From Candidatus Saccharimonadota bacterium (GTDB lineage: Bacteria; Patescibacteriota; Saccharimonadia; Saccharimonadales; AWTP1-31), in the NCBI GenBank assembly GCA_052034955.1, contig JBPOHZ010000009.1, positions 1 to 58,690 on the forward strand: 58,690 nucleotides of DNA, written 5' to 3'. Numbering within the stretch: the first letter of the stretch is position 1; each line of letters starts with the position of its first letter. Of the stretch, positions 6,716 through 22,681 are shown one piece after another. The notes beneath the pieces were generated by a model that did no database searches, was not told the DNA's origin, and saw nothing but the letters and a program-made list of their open reading frames with translations. The position numbers and the translations under genes were made by a program.

Positions 6716-7393
6716 ATGAATAAGGTATATATTCTTCGTGTCTTCTCTGACTCTAACAATAAGTTCGGTGACATCGCTACTGTAGTCATTGACGAAGGTC
6801 GAAAGCTATCTGATGATGAACGACTAGCCATAACAGAAAAACTTGATACGGTGGAGACTGTGTTTGTGAATGACCTGGCAAGTGCCGACATCAGTATTAT
6901 GCATACACAGGGTGAAACAAACTTTGCTGGAGTTGCTGTACTGGGAGCGGCATACCTGTTGAGAAAAATTAGAGGTAGGTCAATTAAGACTATGAATAGC
7001 AAGGGTGGCGATATTGCAGTTTCCCAGGATGGTGAGTTGTTCTGGGTGAGAGCAAATCTGTCTGCAATGCCACCATGGAATCACAAACAGCTTGATAGTG
7101 CCAAGGCTGTTGAGCTAGTAAAGGTTGTAGACACTAAGGACTGGGAGCATACAATGATCTGGGCTTGGATGGATGAAGAAAAGGGACTTATTCGTGCCAG
7201 AACATTTGCTACCGACTGGGATATCCCAGAGGCACAAGGTAATGGCTCGGGTTCTATGTTGCTGGCAGCTCAACTGAATAAGTCCATAGAGATAAAACAT
7301 GGCGACGGTTGCTTGATATATGCAAAGCCAGCACCCAACAACAGTGCAGATATTGGTGGTAGAGTCACTCAAGTGCCGAGCTTAGAGGTATAG
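6716..7393 (+). CDS. PhzF-family-like isomerase/epimerase (short form)
   Basis: The N-terminal pattern FGDIATVVIDEG..LSDDERLAITEKLDTVETVFV..GETNFAGVAVLGAA resembles the PhzF/DAP-epimerase fold. Judged from memory of the family, not from a search. Confidence 0.4.
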   Translation: MNKVYILRVFSDSNNKFGDIATVVIDEGRKLSDDERLAITEKLDTVETVFVNDLASADISIMHTQGETNFAGVAVLGAAYLLRKIRGRSIKTMNSKGGDIAVSQDGELFWVRANLSAMPPWNHKQLDSAKAVELVKVVDTKDWEHTMIWAWMDEEKGLIRARTFATDWDIPEAQGNGSGSMLLAAQLNKSIEIKHGDGCLIYAKPAPNNSADIGGRVTQVPSLEV

Positions 7394-9741: not shown

Positions 9742-10200
9742 TTATAAAGTTGGGGCTGAAGACTGCTCTATGGTTTGTTCGGCTGTCTTTTGGCAGCCTT
9801 CGCAGATGCCTTTAAGTTCGATTGAATGATGCGTTAGTGTAAAGTTATTAGCTTTCTCTAGTACACCCAGCTCATTTTCTAGACCTTCGCTGCGGAGACC
9901 GGTTGTTTTGCCGCATTTGATGCAGGTAAAGTGATGGTGATGAGGAGAGAACGCTTCGCTGAGCTCGACTTTGCTCTTAAAGCCCATCCAGACTCTATGT
10001 ATGATGCCGACTTTTTCAAAAACATCAATAACACGGTATACACTAACTCTATCTACAGCACCCTGGAGCTGGTTAGCAATCTCGACGGTACTGAGCGGAT
10101 CGTGGGTAACAGCTAACGCCTTGAATACCTCTAGCCGTGGTTTGGTTACGCGGTAGTCTTGTTCGGCTAATAGCGACTTGAGTCTTTCTGTCTGTTCCAT
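9742..10200 (-). CDS. Fur-family metalloregulator (Fur/Zur/PerR type)
   Basis: Winged-helix N-terminus (RVTKPRLEVFKAL..STVEIANQL..VSVYRVIDVFEKVGIIHRV), then HHHHFTCIKCGKT and CEGC forming a CxxC...CxxC site. ATG at 10200 is preferred over the TTG at 10236. Confidence 0.85.
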   Translation of the reverse strand: MEQTERLKSLLAEQDYRVTKPRLEVFKALAVTHDPLSTVEIANQLQGAVDRVSVYRVIDVFEKVGIIHRVWMGFKSKVELSEAFSPHHHHFTCIKCGKTTGLRSEGLENELGVLEKANNFTLTHHSIELKGICEGCQKTAEQTIEQSSAPTL

Positions 10201-10237
10201 ATTGCAAAATGTAACACTAATGCAACTATTTTGCAAT
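10201..10237. promoter_or_regulatory. divergent promoter and candidate operator: ATTGCAAAAT, 17 nt, ATTTTGCAAT inverted repeat
   Basis: Perfect 10-nt inverted repeat at 10201-10210 and 10228-10237. The minus-strand promoter TTGCAA (10231-10236), 17-nt spacer, TGTTACATT (10208-10216) and 7 nt to ATG 10200 lies inside it. Confidence 0.55.
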
Positions 10238-10250
10238 AGTTAGATACTTT

Positions 10251-10919
10251 ATGCATAATAATGCAAGAATGAAGATCCATGAGAATTTCCAGTTGTTCTG
10301 GGAAGAATTTAGCCAACAACCAGCCAATAAGTACGGTTTTCACGACTGGCAGGTGGCCGCATTCTTGCATATTGGCGATCAAGAATATGCTCGTCAACGA
10401 CAACTAGGTACGGACGAACTAGGCTTCCAGCCGCTAACAGTCACTTTGGCTAATCCGCTTTCCAAACAAACCGATGAGCATCTAGTAAAACACGTAGACG
10501 ATAGTCTAGCAGAGCGGTTCCTGTCTTTTGCTCGAGATCGTTATATCAGTGAGCTCGCTAATCGATTTGGTAGTTTTACTCCCGACGAAATTCACGCATT
10601 TGCCGAGTATGATACATGGGACAACTTTTATTCACACTGGCTGGAGCGTGATGGAAAGCAGGTGTTTACGAAGAATGTACCGCTGCTTATTGACCACACA
10701 CCAAAGATTGAATACTGGACTCGCAAGCAATCTGGTGCAGAAGTTCTGCCTTATCAACGTCTACTGATTACCACCTACTTCGTATCCAAGAAAAAGTTTT
10801 ACAGTTTCTTTATAAAAGAGATTGACGATGCACAGTTTGAACGTATTAAGTTACTAATGCAGAGTAGGGTAGGCTTGCATATAAACGAATTCTTAAGTAC
10901 CACTAAGGTTGGCGTATGA
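10251..10919 (+). CDS. hypothetical cytoplasmic protein, first gene of the operon divergent from the Fur-like regulator
   Basis: 222-aa ORF. Its stop overlaps the next start (GTATGAGT), which implies translational coupling. Confidence 0.55.
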   Translation: MHNNARMKIHENFQLFWEEFSQQPANKYGFHDWQVAAFLHIGDQEYARQRQLGTDELGFQPLTVTLANPLSKQTDEHLVKHVDDSLAERFLSFARDRYISELANRFGSFTPDEIHAFAEYDTWDNFYSHWLERDGKQVFTKNVPLLIDHTPKIEYWTRKQSGAEVLPYQRLLITTYFVSKKKFYSFFIKEIDDAQFERIKLLMQSRVGLHINEFLSTTKVGV

Positions 10920-12466
10920 GTGCTGGAGCCCAAGAAGCTCTAAGATTTCAGCATGAAGCCACTGCTAGCTTTGAGCAACAGAGCCAAGTTCACAATCATT
11001 ATGAACAGATTCAGCCTGACTTCGATGTGGAACACGGTAATGAAGGACATGTTTGTAATGCGAACTGTGAGCACTCTCAGTCACAAGCAGACATGCTTAG
11101 TGATGATTTATTCGCAGAAGGTGCACATGAACATGTCTGTGGGCCAGACTGCGAACACTCTAGTCATGCGGCAAACGAAATTGCTGATACTTTGTTTGAA
11201 GATTTAGAACAACCGGACTTACAAAAAGTTAAATCCCATATTACGGAGTCGAAAGTAATAACCGATCAAGAAAAGGCTAATGATCAGGCCAAAGACTTGC
11301 AGCATGATCATGAAGGAGAACCACATGTGTGTCATGCGAATTGCGAGCATAACCAAGGCAAGGCTAATAAGCATGCTGATAGCCTCTTCGAAGAATTAGA
11401 CTCGAATGCCAATAAGCAGTCTGATAATATAGCAAACACAGTTAAAAACCTGCTTGAAGAAGTTGCGATTAGTGACGCTCAAGCCGCCGCGCTTCATGCC
11501 TTGCAGCTCGAACAACAGCATCTTACCGATGCTGAACTAAGTGTTCGTCCAGAAGAGCATGATACTAGTGTCATAGAATCTGTGGCCGGCAAAGATATGG
11601 CGGAAAGTGTAAAAGAACTATACGTTCAGAATGAGGCAAAGAGACAAGCCGAAGACGCAGCTATCACTCCTCGTCCTGAAACCGAGACAGAATTAGTGTC
11701 GTCTCTAGGCGAAGAACCCCTTGATATCGAAGAGGCTAGCAGTTACGAGCTTCAGGAAATTGTACCTAATGCCCAGGTCATAGCAGGGCAAGGATTTATG
11801 GACGCGGTTGCTACGCCAGAAGACTATCTAGTCGATGATGCAGAGACTCCAGTAGTAATTGGTCCAGTTGATACCAGTGATTTGTTCGTTTATGATTTGC
11901 CCGAACCTGAAGCCGTGTCATTAAATATTGTTGAGATAGAGAATTCTGATGCGGATTTAGCTAGCTACGTTTTAGAATCCGATCATAGAGAAAATAGTAC
12001 GCCACAGGGACTGGGTATAGAGCATGGCATGCATCAAGACGTGATTTCTGCGCTGCATGAGTCTATTGACAGTGCCAGCTCTGAACGGGTGCAACAACTT
12101 ATTGGTCAAATACTAGAAGTTGCAGAAGGTAGCTTAAGTTCAATAGAAGGGTTCACGATGTATTCACCCGAGCTTCGCGTGAAGCTCTCTGAACTAGCTG
12201 ATTTGCTTTCGATGGATTTTGAAGAGCTAATTGAAGTAATGGATATTACTATTGATAATGAATCTTTGACTTTTGACCAGCAAGCTTACGAGATTCTACT
12301 CGGACTAAAGAAGGATATAAGTATGGAATACAGTCTTGAGTTCACTCAGACTGGTTCTACCCAAAATGCTAGTGCAAAACCAATCATAACTCGCGTACTT
12401 GGTCAGCTAATATTGTTCATTCTTGCTTCAAATAGTGCAAAACGGCCACATGCTCTAGCCGCGTAG
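10916..12466 (+). CDS. acidic protein with three H-V-C-x3-C-E-H repeats and a C-terminal hydrophobic tail
   Basis: 516 aa. Repeats are GHVCNANCEHS (nt 11048-11074), EHVCGPDCEHS (11132-11158) and PHVCHANCEHN (11324-11350). Each is followed by A-x4-D-x-LFE. The protein is very D/E-rich and ends ITRVLGQLILFILASNSA. Confidence 0.6.
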   Translation: MSAGAQEALRFQHEATASFEQQSQVHNHYEQIQPDFDVEHGNEGHVCNANCEHSQSQADMLSDDLFAEGAHEHVCGPDCEHSSHAANEIADTLFEDLEQPDLQKVKSHITESKVITDQEKANDQAKDLQHDHEGEPHVCHANCEHNQGKANKHADSLFEELDSNANKQSDNIANTVKNLLEEVAISDAQAAALHALQLEQQHLTDAELSVRPEEHDTSVIESVAGKDMAESVKELYVQNEAKRQAEDAAITPRPETETELVSSLGEEPLDIEEASSYELQEIVPNAQVIAGQGFMDAVATPEDYLVDDAETPVVIGPVDTSDLFVYDLPEPEAVSLNIVEIENSDADLASYVLESDHRENSTPQGLGIEHGMHQDVISALHESIDSASSERVQQLIGQILEVAEGSLSSIEGFTMYSPELRVKLSELADLLSMDFEELIEVMDITIDNESLTFDQQAYEILLGLKKDISMEYSLEFTQTGSTQNASAKPIITRVLGQLILFILASNSAKRPHALAA

Positions 12467-12856
12467 AACACTCACAGCTGCCGCGCAGGAAGATTTAAGT
12501 GCCTCCTCAAGACCAGCAGGCATACCATGGTGTAGCTCGCTCTCGATAATAGCAAGTCCTGACTCGCGTACTGACAACCTACCGGCAAACTTACCATGTA
12601 CTCCAAACATATCGAGTTCATGGTGTTCGTCATACCCAATTATTTCAGCTGCTCGGTCAGTATATTCGCCGAGTGCTGCGCGGTGACTGTCTCTAAAAAC
12701 ACCAAAGAACTGATTCACGCGCTGGACGGGAAATCGGTCGCTTTCGATTGTATTAGTAATAAATGCTTCGCCTATCATCATATGAGCAAGGCCGTGTTGA
12801 ATATCTGCGTCTGTTTGGATCATAATCTCTCTCAAATTAATATCAAAGCAAACCAT
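12455..12856 (-). CDS. hypothetical small His-rich cytoplasmic protein
   Basis: ORF 12455-12892. The ATG at 12856 sits 8 nt after TGTTACATA (12865-12873) with TTGCAA at 12887-12892. An alternative ATG lies at 12874. Contains DEHHELDMFGVHG and ELHHGMP. The 3' end overlaps the convergent gene by 12 nt. Confidence 0.45.
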   Translation of the reverse strand: MVCFDINLREIMIQTDADIQHGLAHMMIGEAFITNTIESDRFPVQRVNQFFGVFRDSHRAALGEYTDRAAEIIGYDEHHELDMFGVHGKFAGRLSVRESGLAIIESELHHGMPAGLEEALKSSCAAAVSVLRG

Positions 12857-12952
12857 ACCACTTTTATGTAACATAACGCAAAAAAGTTGCAATAAACAAA
12901 GCTATTTGCACCTAACTACTTTGGTACTTCCCCTTGAGGTATAGTTAGTGTA

Positions 12953-13972
12953 ATGGCGCCAACAAAGCACTACCTACATAGTAGTAAAAAGTTACAATCT
13001 CCCATGTGGGGTGTTGCGTTCATTTTGGTGTTGCTGGTTGTCAGGCAATTTAGTAATTCGCAAACATCTGTAGTTCTTCCAAAGATGTTGCAAGACTTTA
13101 TTACACTTTCTGTAAGCGTTATCATAGAGGCTTTGCCGTTTGTACTGTTGGGAATAGTTTTATCTATATTGGTGCAGATTTGGCTGCCTCAATCAGTATT
13201 CTTTCGAATTATTCCAAAACGAAGAGTGCCGCGGCGACTGGTGTTATCTTGTCTAGGTATATTCCTGCCGGTCTGCGAATGTGGCAATGTTCCGCTTGCT
13301 AGGGGTTTGATGATCAGGGGGTTAACGCTTGGCGATTCACTGACTTTTTTGCTGGCAGCTCCGATAATTAATCCGGTCACCATCCTTACTACCCACCAAG
13401 CATTCGGCGGCGATAGTACTATACTAGTATTTCGATTGTTAGGCGGTTTGCTTATTGCAAACATTGTTGGATGGTTGTTTGACAGTCGAAAGAACCAAGA
13501 TGAACTACTCACAGATGAATTTGCCGCGACCTGCCGCGTTGATCATACTCATGAGTCGTCTGGCAGCCGAAGCAAGCTAAGTGAAAGTCTTCGTCTATTT
13601 ATTCGCGAATCAAACGTAATTGTTCCGGCATTGTTTGTTGGTAGTTTTATCGCCGGGCTGGTCCAGGTTGTTATCCCTCGTGATATTCTTCTGTCTTTGG
13701 GCGGTCATGTAGTTCTTTCAATTGTTGTAATGATGCTACTGGCATTCATTGTCTCTATTTGTGCTAATGTTGATGCTTTCTTTGCCCTGGCATTTGCTAA
13801 CACCTTTACGGCAGGTTCGCTGGTAACTTTTTTGATCTTTGGACCAATCATTGATATCAAGATGCTTAATTTAATGCACACAACTTACAAGAAACCAGTG
13901 TTAGTAACAATTACCATAGTCACCATTCTGGTTAGTGGGTTACTTGGTTTGGTGGTGAACTATGCGTTCTAG
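12953..13972 (+). CDS. PF03773/UPF0718-type permease (partner of a TIGR03943 protein)
   Basis: 339 aa, multi-TM, with the conserved PVCECGNVPLARGL motif. TATAGT lies 7 nt before the ATG. Confidence 0.75.
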   Translation: MAPTKHYLHSSKKLQSPMWGVAFILVLLVVRQFSNSQTSVVLPKMLQDFITLSVSVIIEALPFVLLGIVLSILVQIWLPQSVFFRIIPKRRVPRRLVLSCLGIFLPVCECGNVPLARGLMIRGLTLGDSLTFLLAAPIINPVTILTTHQAFGGDSTILVFRLLGGLLIANIVGWLFDSRKNQDELLTDEFAATCRVDHTHESSGSRSKLSESLRLFIRESNVIVPALFVGSFIAGLVQVVIPRDILLSLGGHVVLSIVVMMLLAFIVSICANVDAFFALAFANTFTAGSLVTFLIFGPIIDIKMLNLMHTTYKKPVLVTITIVTILVSGLLGLVVNYAF

Positions 13973-14690
13973 TTTGGCGCGGCTAATAAACAGACGGGGT
14001 ACAGTTTTAACTCTTTTTGGCGTGGTTGCAACCATTTGGTTAAAATTATCAGGCCAACTAAATCTATATATACACCCTAGATACTTTACTTTCAGTGTAG
14101 TTATGGCTGTGGTCGGCGGCTATCTGTGTGTGCAGGATATCCGTCAAAAATCGACGATTAATATCGACCAATTGTCTGAGCGACAATACATTTCACTTGG
14201 TTTAATCTTGCTATCGTTTGTGGCTCTGCTTGTATTAAAGCCATCATCGTTATCAAGCAGTATTGCTATGCAGAGAGGAATTAATAGCGGTAGTAATACT
14301 GAAGTCTTAAGTAAACTGACAAACTTTGATGTTATCTCGCCATTCGGCAATACTGGAACATCACAACTGACCGTTAAGGATTGGGCGAATTTGCTCAGTC
14401 AGACCTCAGATCAGACTTTTTTTGCCGGGAAGAAAGCCAAAGTATCTGGTTTTGTGACCGCGGACTCCAACAATAACATCTTTTTTGTGTCTCGATTTGT
14501 CGTGTCTTGTTGTGCCGTAGACGCTCGACCCATTGGCGTACCCGTCTATAAAGCAAACTGGCAAGCTACCTACCAAAAAGATGAATGGGTTGAGGTGTCT
14601 GGAGTCTTCGGAGTATATGATGGTCAAATTTCTCTTAAGCCCGAAACGATTACTCCAATTTCGCAACCGGAGAGTCCATATGTTTACTAA
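13962..14690 (+). CDS. TIGR03943/DUF1980-family membrane protein (two-component permease partner)
   Basis: 242 aa. Two N-terminal TM segments and a C-terminal domain with the SRFVVSCCAVDARPIGVPV motif. It overlaps the permease gene by 11 nt. Confidence 0.7.
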   Translation: MRSSLARLINRRGTVLTLFGVVATIWLKLSGQLNLYIHPRYFTFSVVMAVVGGYLCVQDIRQKSTINIDQLSERQYISLGLILLSFVALLVLKPSSLSSSIAMQRGINSGSNTEVLSKLTNFDVISPFGNTGTSQLTVKDWANLLSQTSDQTFFAGKKAKVSGFVTADSNNNIFFVSRFVVSCCAVDARPIGVPVYKANWQATYQKDEWVEVSGVFGVYDGQISLKPETITPISQPESPYVY

Positions 14691-16095
14691 ATCACTGAGT
14701 AAACTTTCGGGAAATAAGCTTTGGGCTGTAAGTCTGGGGCTAGGCGGGCTTGCTCTGATTTTCTGCATACTGCTACTTTTCAGTGGTCCAAGAATCCGCC
14801 GAGTGGTTTACGATGCTGATAAATTGCCGCGAGAAGTAAACCAAACCATTGTACTAAGAAGTAATCAACCGTTAGCTAATATTGATAAAGCACAGGTTAC
14901 AATAGACCCGAAAGTAGAGTTTAACCTCACCACAAGTGGTGAGGCGGCAATTATCCAACTCAAGCAACGGCTGAGCTATGATACTAAATACAAGGTGACC
15001 ATTAAGGACTTTGCTGCAAAGTCTGGCCGTAAAGCTTCGTACGAAACTACTATCCATACCGGTAAGGCTTCATATTTTTATCTTAAGCGCAGCCAAAATA
15101 TATCCCTTGAGTCCTTATATGGTGACAAAATTCCCGACACCATATATAGCGGAAGTATAGATGACAAAGATCAAGTAGTATATCAAGCATACAAGATTTT
15201 GGAGTTCGCGCCGCTCGGAAGTCGACTAGTTATACACCACGAAGACGAGGACGAGAGACAATATCTAACAATTTATAACCCTAAAGATAAAACTGAAGAA
15301 GATGTAAATTTGCCAGAAGACAATGGCACGATAGATCAGTTACGGGTATCATCGACAAATGAGTTAGTGGGCTTCCTGTTCTCTAGCAAGTTTGATCCAA
15401 AAAAAGATAATAAGTATAACTCAACACTCTTTGCCTATGACACGGGAAGTAAATTTGTATTTCCACAATACGGTTTGGAGCGGGGCAAATTATTATCAGT
15501 CAGTTCATGGCGATTCCACCCTGACGGAACTAGTATGATCATTCAAACTTTTGATAATACGCTACTGCTAGTGGACTACTACTCCAATCAGAAACCTGTG
15601 CCGTTGGGTTCATACTTTAGTATTGGTACTTTCTCACGTGACGGAAGAAAAGTGGTAGTGGGCGACAATGACAATGGTCCGGTGATACTTGAGCTAGAAG
15701 GCCAAAAGAAAGTAGTGCCCGAGGCAGGCATAATTAACGGTATCGAATCAGATGCCTCCGAGATTATACTGCTCCAAAATAGTGATGATTATATTCTTAT
15801 CAAAGAAGCCTACAGAGAATCAGATGGCGCATACACTCGTGTTGCAGAAGTAACACGTGGGGCGCAGAAACAGGTAATATATTCCTCGAATCAAAGACAA
15901 GAGCAGCTCTTCGAGCTCAACAGCTCGCCCAATGAACAGATGGCGTCCATTGAGCTCTCGGATGTATTCAAAAACAGGAAGTTTGATGGATACGGAACAA
16001 TTTCGAGGCCAACTAATATGCGAACACGCATAGTAGATATAAATACAGGTAAAACTATTAAAGATTTCGACGGTTTTCAGCTCCACTGGTATTAA
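14680..16095 (+). CDS. secreted or membrane-anchored protein with an Ig-like N-domain and a TolB-like beta-propeller region
   Basis: The ATG at 14680 overlaps the upstream stop (ATGTTTACTAA). A signal-anchor (LWAVSLGLGGLALIFCILLLF) is followed by repetitive beta-strand-rich sequence. The ORF track start at 14533 lies inside the upstream gene. Confidence 0.55.
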   Translation: MFTKSLSKLSGNKLWAVSLGLGGLALIFCILLLFSGPRIRRVVYDADKLPREVNQTIVLRSNQPLANIDKAQVTIDPKVEFNLTTSGEAAIIQLKQRLSYDTKYKVTIKDFAAKSGRKASYETTIHTGKASYFYLKRSQNISLESLYGDKIPDTIYSGSIDDKDQVVYQAYKILEFAPLGSRLVIHHEDEDERQYLTIYNPKDKTEEDVNLPEDNGTIDQLRVSSTNELVGFLFSSKFDPKKDNKYNSTLFAYDTGSKFVFPQYGLERGKLLSVSSWRFHPDGTSMIIQTFDNTLLLVDYYSNQKPVPLGSYFSIGTFSRDGRKVVVGDNDNGPVILELEGQKKVVPEAGIINGIESDASEIILLQNSDDYILIKEAYRESDGAYTRVAEVTRGAQKQVIYSSNQRQEQLFELNSSPNEQMASIELSDVFKNRKFDGYGTISRPTNMRTRIVDINTGKTIKDFDGFQLHWY

Positions 16096-16243
16096 TCATT
16101 AACTACGCTACCAGCTAGCTACATTATAGTTCACTGACGTTACGGCATCTGTATATGGCTTCCGGTTGGCATACTTTTGAAAGAACTGATTAGATATCGA
16201 CAATTCTACAATTCGCACTACAGATGGACGAGTACTGACAGGA

Positions 16244-19336: not shown

Positions 19337-19756
19337 ATGAATAAAACACCGATTACCGTTAGCGTGAATGTTAAATCAAGTTTAGATAAAGTTTGGGACG
19401 CCTGGACATTACCCAGGCACATAACTGGCTGGGCATTCGCCTCCGACGACTGGGAAGCTCCTAGTGCACAGAACGACCTTAGGGTAGGCGGTAAATTTGT
19501 AACGGTTATGGCAGCAAAAGATGGAAGTGCAAAGTTTGATTTCGATGGCCAATACACTGAAGTTGATGACAAAAAATTGATCGCTTACAACATGACTGAT
19601 GGTCGGAAAGTCAAAATCGAATTTACAGAAAACCCCGATGGCGTACAAATTTCAGAAACATTTGATCCAGAACAAGAGAACTCAGCAGAACAACAAAGAC
19701 AAGGTTGGCAGGCAATCCTAGAAAACTTTAAGATCTACGCTGAACGCCAGAACTAA
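19337..19756 (+). CDS. SRPBCC-superfamily protein (AHSA1/START-like)
   Basis: ITVSVNVKSSLDKVWDAWT.P..I..W......W.......DLRVGGKF...........F.F.G.Y.EV pattern and a C-terminal GWQAILENFK. Confidence 0.7.
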   Translation: MNKTPITVSVNVKSSLDKVWDAWTLPRHITGWAFASDDWEAPSAQNDLRVGGKFVTVMAAKDGSAKFDFDGQYTEVDDKKLIAYNMTDGRKVKIEFTENPDGVQISETFDPEQENSAEQQRQGWQAILENFKIYAERQN

Positions 19757-22089
19757 ATTCGGGTACCAGTAAAGATCCAAAGAAGATCTTCTTCGCTAGG
19801 TACAGGTGTGTTTCGAGCTTTCTCGGCGATAGGGTACAAGTGAGACTCGTTTAATGGCACAAATACATCTGTCCATTGACGTCGTGCAGCAGATTCTGGA
19901 GAAAACTCTACAAAATCAGCATCAGGGTTTGATCCCCAATCAGCTGTAATTAGCTTGTGCATAGACTTAGAAGCGTTGTAGCCCTGTGCATAGCCATTTC
20001 GACCTTGTACTCTGTTGGCTCGAGCTTCTGGTTCCTCGCTGAAAGATGCTCTAATTCCAGTCAATATGTTAGCTGCAGCTTCAGCCCAATGTTCAGCGGC
20101 ATTTGTTCGTGCATATTGGCTCATAAATCTACCGATTCGGGCAAAAACAGCTTCGGTTAATCTAGGGTCTGTAGTCTTAACATTTTCTACACGAGGTTCT
20201 ATTTGACCATTAACCATTTGGGTTCCACGCTTAATATCCCATTTAAGGTCAGTGTCATATGGACGTCGTAGAAGTTTTTGCCAGAAGGTACGTGTATCTT
20301 GACCACGTTCTTCAGCTGTAACTCTATCGTAGTCAGACTGAGCTTTATCGGCAAAGCGTCCGTTGGTAAAGTACACCTTATGACCCCATGCCTCACCAGT
20401 TGACATCAATTTATTCTTTTCATTATTTAGGTCTGTAAAGTGACCAGCTATCTCGTGAGCGGCAACCCATAATGGACCCATGCGATCTTGCATTTCTTCT
20501 TCTGTAGGATCTGTCGGCATGTGCATTTCTACAAGTCCAAAACTTCCATAGGCAAGTCCTAAGATGCCGCTTTCACGCTGGATATCAAGTCCAAGTCCAA
20601 CTTTCTTTGGATTCTGATGTCTGGTTCCGGCGTTTTCACTTGGGTAGATTGCGACCATGTTTAGCTCACTTCCAACACGTCCGGCTTGTAGCTGGCTAAC
20701 GTTTCGGAAAAGATCTTTAATCATTTCTTTACTTCGTTCAGTAGGTTTGTGGTCAATAAAGATGGCATTCAAGCTCTTTCGATCGCCATTGTCATCAGTG
20801 TATTCAAGCTGATATGTATCTTGGATACGATCATCTTCGCGGAACAAATCCTGATATTTACGAGCATATACCCAAGCTTCAGCTACAAGCTCATCAGTAG
20901 CTGTTTTCGCTTCTGGGTAAAGCTTTAGGAATTCTGGTTCTGGCATCTCAGCAGGTACGTCTACATACTGTTTGCGTACATACTCATACATCTTTTTTCG
21001 GAAGCGAGGAAGTGGAGGAATTGGTACTATCAAACCCGTTAGATCATAGTCGTGATTCTCGTTTGGATCACCATCGGGCTCACAGATTTCCTCGGGTTTA
21101 CCAGGGTTGACTGTTACAGTAGTAGTTTCGAAATCTATTGTGGCTTGTAAGCCTCTCTTACTTCCAATGTGCTTATCAAAAACATCTTTTACTCTTGAGT
21201 CAAGAGAATCTGGGAATATATTGTAAGTACTTAGGAAATATTCAAGACTTCCCACGCCTTCCTCGGCAATCCCATTATTTGCCTCGATAATGGCATCAGT
21301 AATTTCTTTTAGCTCTTCAGGTTTAAGAACAACTTCTTTAGCTTCAATCTTTGCGCCACTAATATCAATTCCACGTTCGGCAGCAACAGCGTTAACTGCT
21401 TGCATAAATTTCAACGCTCTAGCTGGAGCTAGTACGTCAGCGTTTTCTGGGTTTGGATGTTCGAATCCTACATTATCATCATCTCCACGGTAATCGTCGG
21501 AAGCTAAGAATACAAAAGTTAATTCTGCTTTTGTGTCCTGTGATTTAGCGTTTGCTATTGTGGCAAGTAGCTCGTCAACCTCTGCCAAATTTGGTTCAGA
21601 TGACCCAACACTTTGAAGTGAAACAAACTTCTCAACTCTTTGCTTTGTTGTTTCTTTAGTTGTAGATTCGGCTTCTCCTGGTTTGCAGACTTCGCCAATA
21701 TGGAAGTGATCTTCGATGCTATCTTTGACACCTTGAATAACTTCAATACCGTCTTCTCCTGCAGTTGCAATATCATCAATGTTGGCAATAACATTGGCAG
21801 CACCAGTTAGTACTAACGATGCAATTAGAGCATTACGAGGTGTTATTAACCAACCGTTTCGTGCTAATCCAGGTATAAGAACAGTTTCACCCTCTACCGC
21901 AACACGGTGTGCACGTCGGAAGCGACTTTGGGGACGGAATCTGTCGATCAAGAATGCTTCCATTCGTTCAGTTGATACGTAGTCTGGTTTAGGCTGTTGA
22001 TCTGGATCATTAGGCTGAACAGGCAAAGGATAGACGTTCTCGACTATCTCATGAGGGTGTTGTTCGATTGGCTGGGTTAATTCGGGCAT
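19753..22089 (-). CDS. large membrane-anchored protein with an HExxH zinc-peptidase motif (possible gluzincin)
   Basis: 778 aa. One TM segment (ALIASLVLTGAANVIANI). WVAAHEIAGHFTD, and about 120 aa further on NAAEHWAEAAANI. GGAG RBS. Promoter TTGCAT (22140-22145), 17-nt spacer, TAAACT (22117-22122). Confidence 0.6.
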   Translation of the reverse strand: MPELTQPIEQHPHEIVENVYPLPVQPNDPDQQPKPDYVSTERMEAFLIDRFRPQSRFRRAHRVAVEGETVLIPGLARNGWLITPRNALIASLVLTGAANVIANIDDIATAGEDGIEVIQGVKDSIEDHFHIGEVCKPGEAESTTKETTKQRVEKFVSLQSVGSSEPNLAEVDELLATIANAKSQDTKAELTFVFLASDDYRGDDDNVGFEHPNPENADVLAPARALKFMQAVNAVAAERGIDISGAKIEAKEVVLKPEELKEITDAIIEANNGIAEEGVGSLEYFLSTYNIFPDSLDSRVKDVFDKHIGSKRGLQATIDFETTTVTVNPGKPEEICEPDGDPNENHDYDLTGLIVPIPPLPRFRKKMYEYVRKQYVDVPAEMPEPEFLKLYPEAKTATDELVAEAWVYARKYQDLFREDDRIQDTYQLEYTDDNGDRKSLNAIFIDHKPTERSKEMIKDLFRNVSQLQAGRVGSELNMVAIYPSENAGTRHQNPKKVGLGLDIQRESGILGLAYGSFGLVEMHMPTDPTEEEMQDRMGPLWVAAHEIAGHFTDLNNEKNKLMSTGEAWGHKVYFTNGRFADKAQSDYDRVTAEERGQDTRTFWQKLLRRPYDTDLKWDIKRGTQMVNGQIEPRVENVKTTDPRLTEAVFARIGRFMSQYARTNAAEHWAEAAANILTGIRASFSEEPEARANRVQGRNGYAQGYNASKSMHKLITADWGSNPDADFVEFSPESAARRQWTDVFVPLNESHLYPIAEKARNTPVPSEEDLLWIFTGTRI

Positions 22090-22165
22090 TACATCTCCAA
22101 AAATTTATCAAGTCATAGTTTAACACAAAAGTGTAAAAAATGCAACTATATTTTGGAGATATACT

Positions 22166-22681
22166 CTAGTGAAGAAGTTTGTTTACTCTGCGTGTACTAA
22201 CGTAAAACAGTGCTAGTAAGATTATTAATCCAGCTGCAAACTCTTTGCTAAGATCAAGGATTATTAAAACTGGTATAGCTAAACCACTTACAGTAATCGG
22301 TAGTCCTATCAAATAGCCCTTTGTGAGGTGACGATTAATGTTATGCCTAGCCAATCTTAAGGCTCCACAAACGGGGATAAGAATAGCCAGTAACGATAAC
22401 CAGTTTGTATTGTAGTAGGCAGTAACTAGTACCATTGGTGCCACGCCAAATGTCACTAAATCGGCTAAAGAATCTAGCTCTGCACCAAACTTTGACTCCT
22501 GGTGAAGCCGTCGCGCTACTGCGCCGTCAATGGCGTCAAAAAAGACACCTGCAAGCAGTAGTAGGGCGGCAATTGTAAAGCGATGATGTATTGCCGAATA
22601 TATGGCCAGTAGGCCAGACACCAGATTTAATAGGGTAATGTAATCTGGAAGTTTCATTATCTTAGGAATTGATTTTTGCAA
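22166..22681 (-). CDS. pssA: CDP-alcohol phosphatidyltransferase, probably phosphatidylserine synthase
   Basis: Motif DAIDGAVARRLHQESKFGAELDSLADLV (DGx2ARx8Gx3Dx3D). It overlaps psd by 20 nt. Confidence 0.8.
   Translation of the reverse strand: MQKSIPKIMKLPDYITLLNLVSGLLAIYSAIHHRFTIAALLLLAGVFFDAIDGAVARRLHQESKFGAELDSLADLVTFGVAPMVLVTAYYNTNWLSLLAILIPVCGALRLARHNINRHLTKGYLIGLPITVSGLAIPVLIILDLSKEFAAGLIILLALFYVSTRRVNKLLH

Follow-up and report, generated by a model that had tools for sequence, protein, structure and literature searches.

Within the Fur family, the described systems closest to the one reported here are Zur, classical Fur and Nur. Zur regulons include metal importers such as ZIP/ZupT-type transporters, and Zur boxes are of the n-1-n type, being A/T-rich with a 7-1-7 arrangement. 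For Nur of Streptomyces coelicolor the box tTGCaa-N5-ttGCAA was defined by footprinting as a 6-5-6 motif, and 6-5-6 recognition was linked to the nickel site H70, H72 and H126 that defines Nur orthologues (PMC2691836).

The window analysed in this work is a stretch of 58,690 nt, namely contig C17 of the genome G000 (0.99 Mb, 26 contigs, 44% G+C) from Candidatus Saccharimonadales. It carries a Fur-family regulator gene (fur), and an initial annotation had linked site A at this gene, site B at a permease operon and site C at the gene of a 778-aa HExxH protein to one autoregulated regulon. We arrive at a modified picture, to which we assign a probability of roughly 80%: sites A and B are predicted to be operators of the Fur-family repressor of the window and to belong to the same regulon as a ZIP transporter gene, with site C excluded, and the predicted recognition unit is a 17-bp 6-5-6 palindrome, TTGCAA-N5-T(T/C)GCAA, usually followed by a third TTGCAA-like hexamer 12-13 nt on. 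The host belongs to the Saccharibacteria, which are ultra-small epibiotic bacteria and for which, to our knowledge, hardly any gene regulation has been characterised.

Methods

For the collection of Fur homologues 61 genomes were searched, namely G000 and 60 relatives. Fur promoters were read at 36 loci, comprising 30 loci fetched from the 61-genome set and 6 further Saccharimonadales loci, 2 of which are the G040 and G041 loci again. A weight matrix with a 21-nt frame was derived from 27 boxes of orthologous Fur promoters, with G000 left out, and used to scan all 0.99 Mb. Furthermore, 32 non-redundant Fur promoters were aligned without gaps in the fixed register 6-5-6-12-6-(0-2)-ATG. Leaderless promoters of G000 were collected as TGnTAnnnT-N5-8-ATG followed by an ORF, yielding 152 candidates.

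The Fur-family regulator

9742-10200, minus strand: gene of the Fur-family regulator, 152 aa, PF01475; ATG at 10200

The Fur-like nature of this gene, already recognised in the initial annotation, was corroborated by a match to PF01475 over residues 14-129 (2e-18, 67.1 bits, cut-off 23.1). The N-terminus lines up with orthologues starting at the same ATG, and the genome search returned this single match, making it the only Fur-family gene in G000. Fur, Zur and PerR structures in the PDB were matched at 5e-12 to 7e-10, and the NCBIfam equivalog models for Fur, Zur and PerR all gave scores far below their cut-offs for the regulator. The protein contains H33, E79, H87-H90, C93/C96, E108, H124/H125 and C133/C136, and both CxxC pairs (C93/C96 and C133/C136) as well as the E-L and HHH-H motifs align with solved Fur structures. 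Presumably H33, E79, H87-H90, E108, H124/H125 and the CxxC pairs can be assigned to specific ligand sites, and the ligand set (H33, E79, H87-H90, E108, H125) looks Fur-like. Zur regulatory sites typically contain a certain Cys ligand, which is absent from the regulator.

Site A and the fur promoter

10201-10237: perfect 10-17-10 inverted repeat, ATTGCAAAAT-N17-ATTTTGCAAT, read from the sequence
10220-10236: predicted core operator of site A, a 17-bp 6-5-6 palindrome (26.0 bits, frame 10218-10238)
10231-10236: box 1
10220-10225: box 2
10202-10207: box 3 (TTGCAA), separated from box 2 by 12 nt and from the fur ATG by 1 nt
10208-10216, minus strand: putative extended -10 of fur, TGTTACATT, 7 nt upstream of the ATG, assigned from the sequence
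10231-10259, plus strand: putative divergent promoter of the 222-aa/516-aa operon, TTGCAA, 17 nt, CATAAT, from a consensus scan
10251-12466, plus strand: divergent operon next to fur, consisting of a 222-aa ORF and the gene of a 516-aa protein

Site A had been described as a perfect inverted repeat spanning the -35, the spacer, the -10 and the start-codon neighbourhood of the regulator gene, and these sequence statements hold. From the positions of the three boxes, however, it follows that the 10-17-10 repeat consists of box 1 and box 3, while the 11-mer AATGCAACTAT at 10219-10229, which had been emphasised as well, is box 2 plus flank. The proposal of an operator at site A is therefore retained, but neither the 11-mer nor the 10-17-10 repeat is the probable unit; the 6-5-6 palindrome with the third hexamer takes their place. 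The core reads TTGCAA-AATAG-TTGCAT on the minus strand and ATGCAA-CTATT-TTGCAA on the plus strand.

With the extended -10 only 7 nt before the ATG, the fur mRNA would be leaderless, and the palindrome covers the -35/spacer region of this putative leaderless promoter. On the other side, box 1 would double as the -35 for the divergent 222-aa/516-aa operon. The probable start of the 222-aa ORF is position 10269 (MKIHENFQLFW), corresponding to the starts of its G040 and G041 orthologues. The 516-aa protein is acidic and contains HVCx3CEH repeats; neither protein had a match in Pfam or NCBIfam, and the gene pair also adjoins fur in G040 and G041.

An inverted repeat of this length might also act in RNA, as a hairpin of an attenuator or terminator, and not as a DNA site; if transcribed, it would fold with -12.8 kcal/mol (z = -3.1). 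Nevertheless, with the promoters proposed above both transcripts would begin beyond the repeat and lead away from it, and a T-run is missing. Pairing of the hexamers follows by construction, as TTGCAA boxes are self-complementary, and conservation in orthologues does not extend to the flanks of the repeat. Consequently, a hairpin function is hardly conceivable, and we continue with site A as a candidate DNA operator.

Conservation of the palindrome

The TTGCAA-N5-TYGCAA palindrome was found upstream of every Fur orthologue examined (36 loci, Candidatus Saccharimonadales). The consensus of the 27 orthologous boxes is TATTGCAAATTTGTCGCAATT, and that of the 32 aligned Fur promoters is tTATTGCAAaTTTGTCGCAATtt.t.ttaa.tTTGCAa.ATG, corresponding to a layout of a hexamer, 5 nt, a hexamer, 12 nt holding an A/T-rich -10, and the third hexamer. 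The latter begins with TTG in 23 and with TTGC in 17 of the 32 promoters, and the ATG follows it after 0-2 nt in 27 of them; the arrangement N12-TTGCAA-N0-2-ATG is also kept at most Fur orthologue loci.

Such a conserved box could be real and yet be bound by another transcription factor. A hint of another role could come from four relatives with many strict matches within genes. On the other hand, none of the fur promoters examined lacks the box, its register relative to the start codon is fixed, it co-occurs with fur (see below), and it equals the footprinted box of a Fur-family member (PMC2691836). We grant another factor only a small chance and regard the Fur-family regulator as the probable ligand of the box.

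At Fur homologues of the other candidate-phyla-radiation classes examined (Parcubacteria and Paceibacteria) no TTGCAA box was observed. As a separate observation, fur homologues in MAGs of these two classes (L086, L088, L090, L091; also L087 and L089) are located directly 3' of a conserved tRNA-like 3' end (...GGTTCGATTCCTACTGTGCCTGC), and this tRNA-fur synteny looks conserved across the classes.

Genome scan and motif counts

C3:11586-11602: predicted ZIP operator, 20.6 bits, about 40 nt upstream of the ZIP gene, outside the window
C3:11644-12537: ZIP transporter gene, 297 aa (PF02535, 1.7e-35)

A scan of the genome for the motif, suggested in the initial annotation as a check, yielded site A (26.0 bits), C3:11584 at the ZIP gene (20.6 bits) and site B (17.8 bits) as the three highest matrix scores in G000. 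All three are located in promoter regions, compared with an intergenic share of 8.8% of the genome, and the next matches reach at most 14.4 bits and lie nearly all within ORFs. Thereby the ZIP gene, located outside the window and missed in the initial annotation, was added as a predicted member of the regulon. Markov-2 simulated genomes contained 0.56 matches of at least 17.8 bits per genome on both strands, so that the score of site B is by itself not decisive.

Counting the strict N5 palindrome across the 61 genomes gave 80 matches, as compared to 10 for the reversed control and 52 for the control with N6 spacing. In G054, G058, G051 and G052, most of the strict matches lie inside housekeeping genes, and a motif match alone therefore proves nothing. 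Genome-wide enrichment of the strict palindrome was considered as proof and set aside, since it is weakened by the N6 control and by the intragenic matches; our argument rests on position and co-occurrence, not on motif counts.

In the same four relatives (L093-L111) there are 5-7 strict TTGCRA-N5-TYGCAA palindromes per genome, a number far above the reversed control, mostly within conserved-looking long ORFs, several of which read by eye as UvrA-, LeuRS- and UvrC-like. Several of these palindromes are read in one and the same frame, as (I/L/F)-A-(T/K)-x-S-Q. Furthermore, an N6-spaced palindrome, TTGCAAACCAGTTTGCAA, was noticed at C3:11016-11033 of G000; it is nearly unchanged in at least 8 other genomes (among them G054, G036, G057, G009, G035, G012 and G031) and could represent either a hairpin conserved in RNA or part of a conserved gene in the vicinity of a tRNA gene.

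Site B and the permease cassette

12865-12873, minus strand: TGTTACATA, putative extended -10 for the small gene at 12455-12823 on this strand, read from the sequence
12876-12892: predicted core operator of site B, ACGCAA-AAAAG-TTGCAA on the plus strand and TTGCAA-CTTTT-TTGCGT on the minus strand (17.8 bits, frame 12874-12894)
12906-12911, plus strand: third hexamer of site B (TTGCAC), 13 nt past the palindrome towards the permease operon
12953-16095, plus strand: permease operon with ArsP_1 permease, DUF1980/TIGR03943 subunit and 520-aa protein
12953-13972, plus strand: ArsP_1 permease (PF03773, 3e-58)
13962-14690, plus strand: DUF1980/TIGR03943 subunit (PF21537, PF09323; TIGR03943 2e-42)
14533-16095, plus strand: ORF as listed for the 520-aa protein

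For site B (12865-12911), which separates the permease operon from the small minus-strand gene, the sequence is as given in the initial annotation. The predicted operator covers the -35/spacer region of the putative promoter of the small gene and lies upstream of the permease operon, where a Shine-Dalgarno sequence at a usable distance from the permease start at 12953 was not found. A literature search on the function of DUF1980, TIGR03943 or COG3689 gave nothing useful.

The permease operon is present in only 7 of the 61 genomes (G000 and six relatives), and in the five closest relatives a Fur-family gene is found within 3-6 kb of it. Four of these five have a box some 60 nt before the permease start (G040 19.7, G041 21.7, G018 31.8 and G021 18.2 bits), and in the permease promoters of G018, G040 and G041 the palindrome is followed, 12-13 nt downstream, by TTGCAA or TCGCAA. 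No box was seen in the G031 island. Phylogenetic footprinting, likewise suggested as a check in the initial annotation, is thus favourable for the fur and permease promoters, and the part of the autoregulated regulon that had been built on sites A and B is supported by the box conserved upstream of Fur and permease-operon orthologues.

The stretch 12795-16160 of the window, comprising operator B and the permease operon, is 94% DNA-identical to G021:C6:5888-9253 (L078). G021 belongs to another genus, its Fur is 39% identical, and of the small divergent gene only the first codons are left. As 94% identity over 3.4 kb stands against unrelated flanks in the two genomes, a recent horizontal transfer is indicated, and the comparison points to a permease cassette that moved together with its operator.

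The ZIP transporter gene and co-occurrence with fur

Of the 61 genomes, 60 have the ZIP gene, which mostly adjoins fur in divergent orientation, with a box common to both. In G000 the proximal hexamer at the ZIP gene is located 17 nt from a putative TAGGCT -10. Among 30 genomes examined, 23 have a box scoring 17-33 bits at most 70 nt from the ZIP gene, including 8 with fur on another contig as well as G003, where the search recovered no more than a fur fragment at the edge of a contig. The four of these 30 genomes that lack fur have no ZIP box (best scores below 4), as compared to 23 of the 26 others; in G018 and G004 fur is present and the ZIP box is absent.

These data also bear on the possibility that the sequences common to the sites are ordinary promoter elements, i.e. 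a TTGCAA-type -35 with an extended -10. Box 1 is indeed at the -35 position for both divergent promoters, and the extended -10 TGTTACAT is common to sites A and B. However, TTGCA occurs in the -35/spacer region of only 8 of the 152 leaderless extended -10 promoter candidates of G000, and no -35 consensus emerged among them, hence the TTGCA hexamer is not a general promoter element in this genome. Furthermore, the palindrome accompanies fur, ZIP and the permease in different genomes, and it is gone from ZIP promoters in genomes without fur. Plain promoter elements are highly improbable as the explanation, and the palindrome is best understood as the predicted operator of the Fur-family repressor.

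The Fur of the window groups with those of G040 (65% identity) and G041 (57% identity), outside the main clade of 25 sequences, and the Fur of G001, a member of the same genus, is only 35% identical. A Fur homologue is present in 48 of the 61 genomes searched, G000 included. In G001 (L025 from contig C11, positions 1400-1900 of L025) a main-type fur with its box is flanked by a histidine kinase gene on one side and a 400-aa gene on the other. The same neighbours occur at C16:5609-8141 of G000 with a 39-nt gap (6915-6954) that contains neither fur nor box. With the main-type fur missing at this position, the island-borne paralogue of the window is the sole Fur-family gene left in G000, and the ZIP promoter keeps a full box.

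Many relatives have, adjacent to fur or ZIP loci, a conserved hairpin, GGAAGTGTGAGGCTTCC, with a terminator-like hairpin and a T-run behind it (in G000 at C3:11490-11545, i.e. L079:2490-2545; furthermore in L013, L014, L019, L022, L023, L026, L029 and L030). It usually stands directly after a gene ending in ...GCATAAGC, and an Rfam search of this hairpin gave no match even at E<=1.

Site C and the HExxH gene

22139-22149: site C, second copy of the 11-mer AATGCAACTAT, upstream of the 778-aa HExxH gene (19753-22089)

The initial annotation had treated sites A, B and C as three operators of one regulon, with the HExxH gene co-regulated through the shared 11-mer. The identity of the 11-mer at sites A and C was confirmed: it is present exactly twice in the 0.99-Mb genome, at 10219-10229 and 22139-22149, in two promoter regions 12 kb apart, and site C retains one perfect half-site with flank (ATAGTTGCATT). 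The claim that such sharing would be expected by chance in a few percent of cases did not withstand our control, in which 13.9% of random intergenic 37-mers of G000 have an 11-mer in common with another intergenic stretch at most 30 kb away; every random intergenic 37-mer tested has an 11-mer match elsewhere in the genome. The alignment of the two regions, which had been pointed out as well, is equally ordinary, since the site A region and site C reach a best local score of 18, as compared to a median of 17 (range 13-30) for 60 random intergenic 56-mers, and another intergenic segment, C1:7882-8117, aligns better (21).

The half-site at C is TTGCAT, and a second half-site at N5 spacing is absent; over the 77 nt preceding the HExxH gene (22090-22166) the matrix reaches -1.3 bits at most. 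HExxH orthologues were found in five relatives, two of them full-length (G057, 49% identity; G029, 41%), and in these two no site of at least 9 bits occurs within 1.5 kb, so that phylogenetic footprinting is negative here. Moreover, G057 has the HExxH gene but no fur. Site C is thus not an operator of the 6-5-6 class and not part of the system, and its likeness to site A is due to chance. Three operators including site C are accordingly very unlikely, and the regulon is reduced to sites A and B together with the ZIP operator: sites A and B go beyond chance, the A-C link does not. Site C probably overlaps a promoter hexamer, with TTGCAT as -35 or TATAGT as -10. For annotation this means that the HExxH protein is removed from the metal regulon.

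Discussion

By analogy with the Fur family, a metal-loaded dimer of the regulator would bind the palindrome and occlude RNA polymerase, leading to repression; under metal shortage the dimer would be released and the uptake genes turned on. Since box 1 would double as the divergent -35 and the palindrome lies over the putative fur promoter, one dimer bound at site A would shut both the fur and the 222-aa/516-aa promoters, and fur would be autoregulated. At site B the same module occupies the region that separates the ArsP_1/DUF1980 permease operon from the small minus-strand gene. Box 3, positioned between the -10 and the putative start point, may serve as an extra half-site.

With respect to the sensed metal, zinc is our best guess at about even odds, the alternatives being iron/manganese or nickel/cobalt. 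Zinc is favoured because the conserved partner gene across the order encodes a ZIP transporter and because the accessory genes are Cys/His-rich, and with the Zur-type Cys ligand absent and a Fur-like ligand set, this argument is drawn entirely from the regulon content. ZIP transporters as such are not restricted to zinc. Further genes linked to a box (in G054, G058, G051, G052, G037, G036, G040 and others) were tried as indicators of the metal and rejected, as these boxes are mostly intragenic and the few intergenic ones flank genes of no known function.

The predicted regulon comprises fur and ZIP as core, and the ArsP_1/DUF1980 cassette together with several uncharacterised Cys/His-rich proteins as accessory part; the box would thereby tie the uncharacterised Cys/His-rich genes to metal supply. 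Our literature search yielded no paper describing a Fur, Zur or Nur regulon for Saccharibacteria. The regulon is undescribed but of conventional Fur-family kind.

Its features can be compared with the three known systems. Classical Fur at divergent promoters is alike in the palindromic operator over the -35/-10, in its own promoter as a target and in the ligand set. In contrast, the 19-bp Fur box differs from the box of the window in sequence and spacing, the predicted regulon of the window contains no iron-uptake or iron-storage genes, and its promoters appear leaderless. Zur is alike in being an autoregulated or target-adjacent Fur-family repressor of metal importers with an operator over the promoter, features which are predicted on the side of the window; the 7-1-7 box of Zur, however, differs from the 6-5-6 box of the window. 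Genes of ribosomal-protein paralogues, COG0523 and znuABC were looked for and none adjoins the boxes.

The closest likeness in the operator is to Nur, whose box consensus is identical to the Saccharimonadales box. Nur also belongs to the Fur family, and its numbering of H33, H86-H90 and C133/C136 is matched by the protein of the window. At the nickel-site positions H70, H72 and H126, however, the window protein has V70, M72 and S126, a comparison by raw numbering only; its histidines are at 68, 124 and 125. The protein is furthermore closer to the structures of Fur, Zur and PerR (5e-12 to 7e-10) than to 3eyy (2e-4), which we take to be the Nur chain. Nur controls genes of nickel transport (nik) and superoxide dismutase (sod), whereas the predicted targets in G000 are fur, ZIP, the ArsP_1/DUF1980 permease and uncharacterised genes. 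In addition, the system of the window has a third hexamer at fixed spacing, and its host belongs to the Patescibacteria, whereas that of Nur belongs to the Actinomycetota. The window protein probably works like a Fur/Zur/Nur-type repressor with a Nur-type box; an assignment as Nur orthologue is not evident, and we do not file it as such.

Taken together, the comparison leads us to a joint reading that we offer tentatively, at slightly less than even odds: a Saccharimonadales-wide Fur-family regulator may read a Nur-type 6-5-6 box without the nickel site proposed to cause that mode, with a third hexamer strictly spaced at the leaderless start point; the operator may travel with the transporter cassette between genera; and in G000 the island paralogue may have replaced the ancestral regulator and now run the ancestral ZIP operator. 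The most interesting aspects are the mobile operator-bearing cassette and the Nur-type box without an evident nickel site, the latter of which bears on how Fur-family proteins choose the spacing of their operators.
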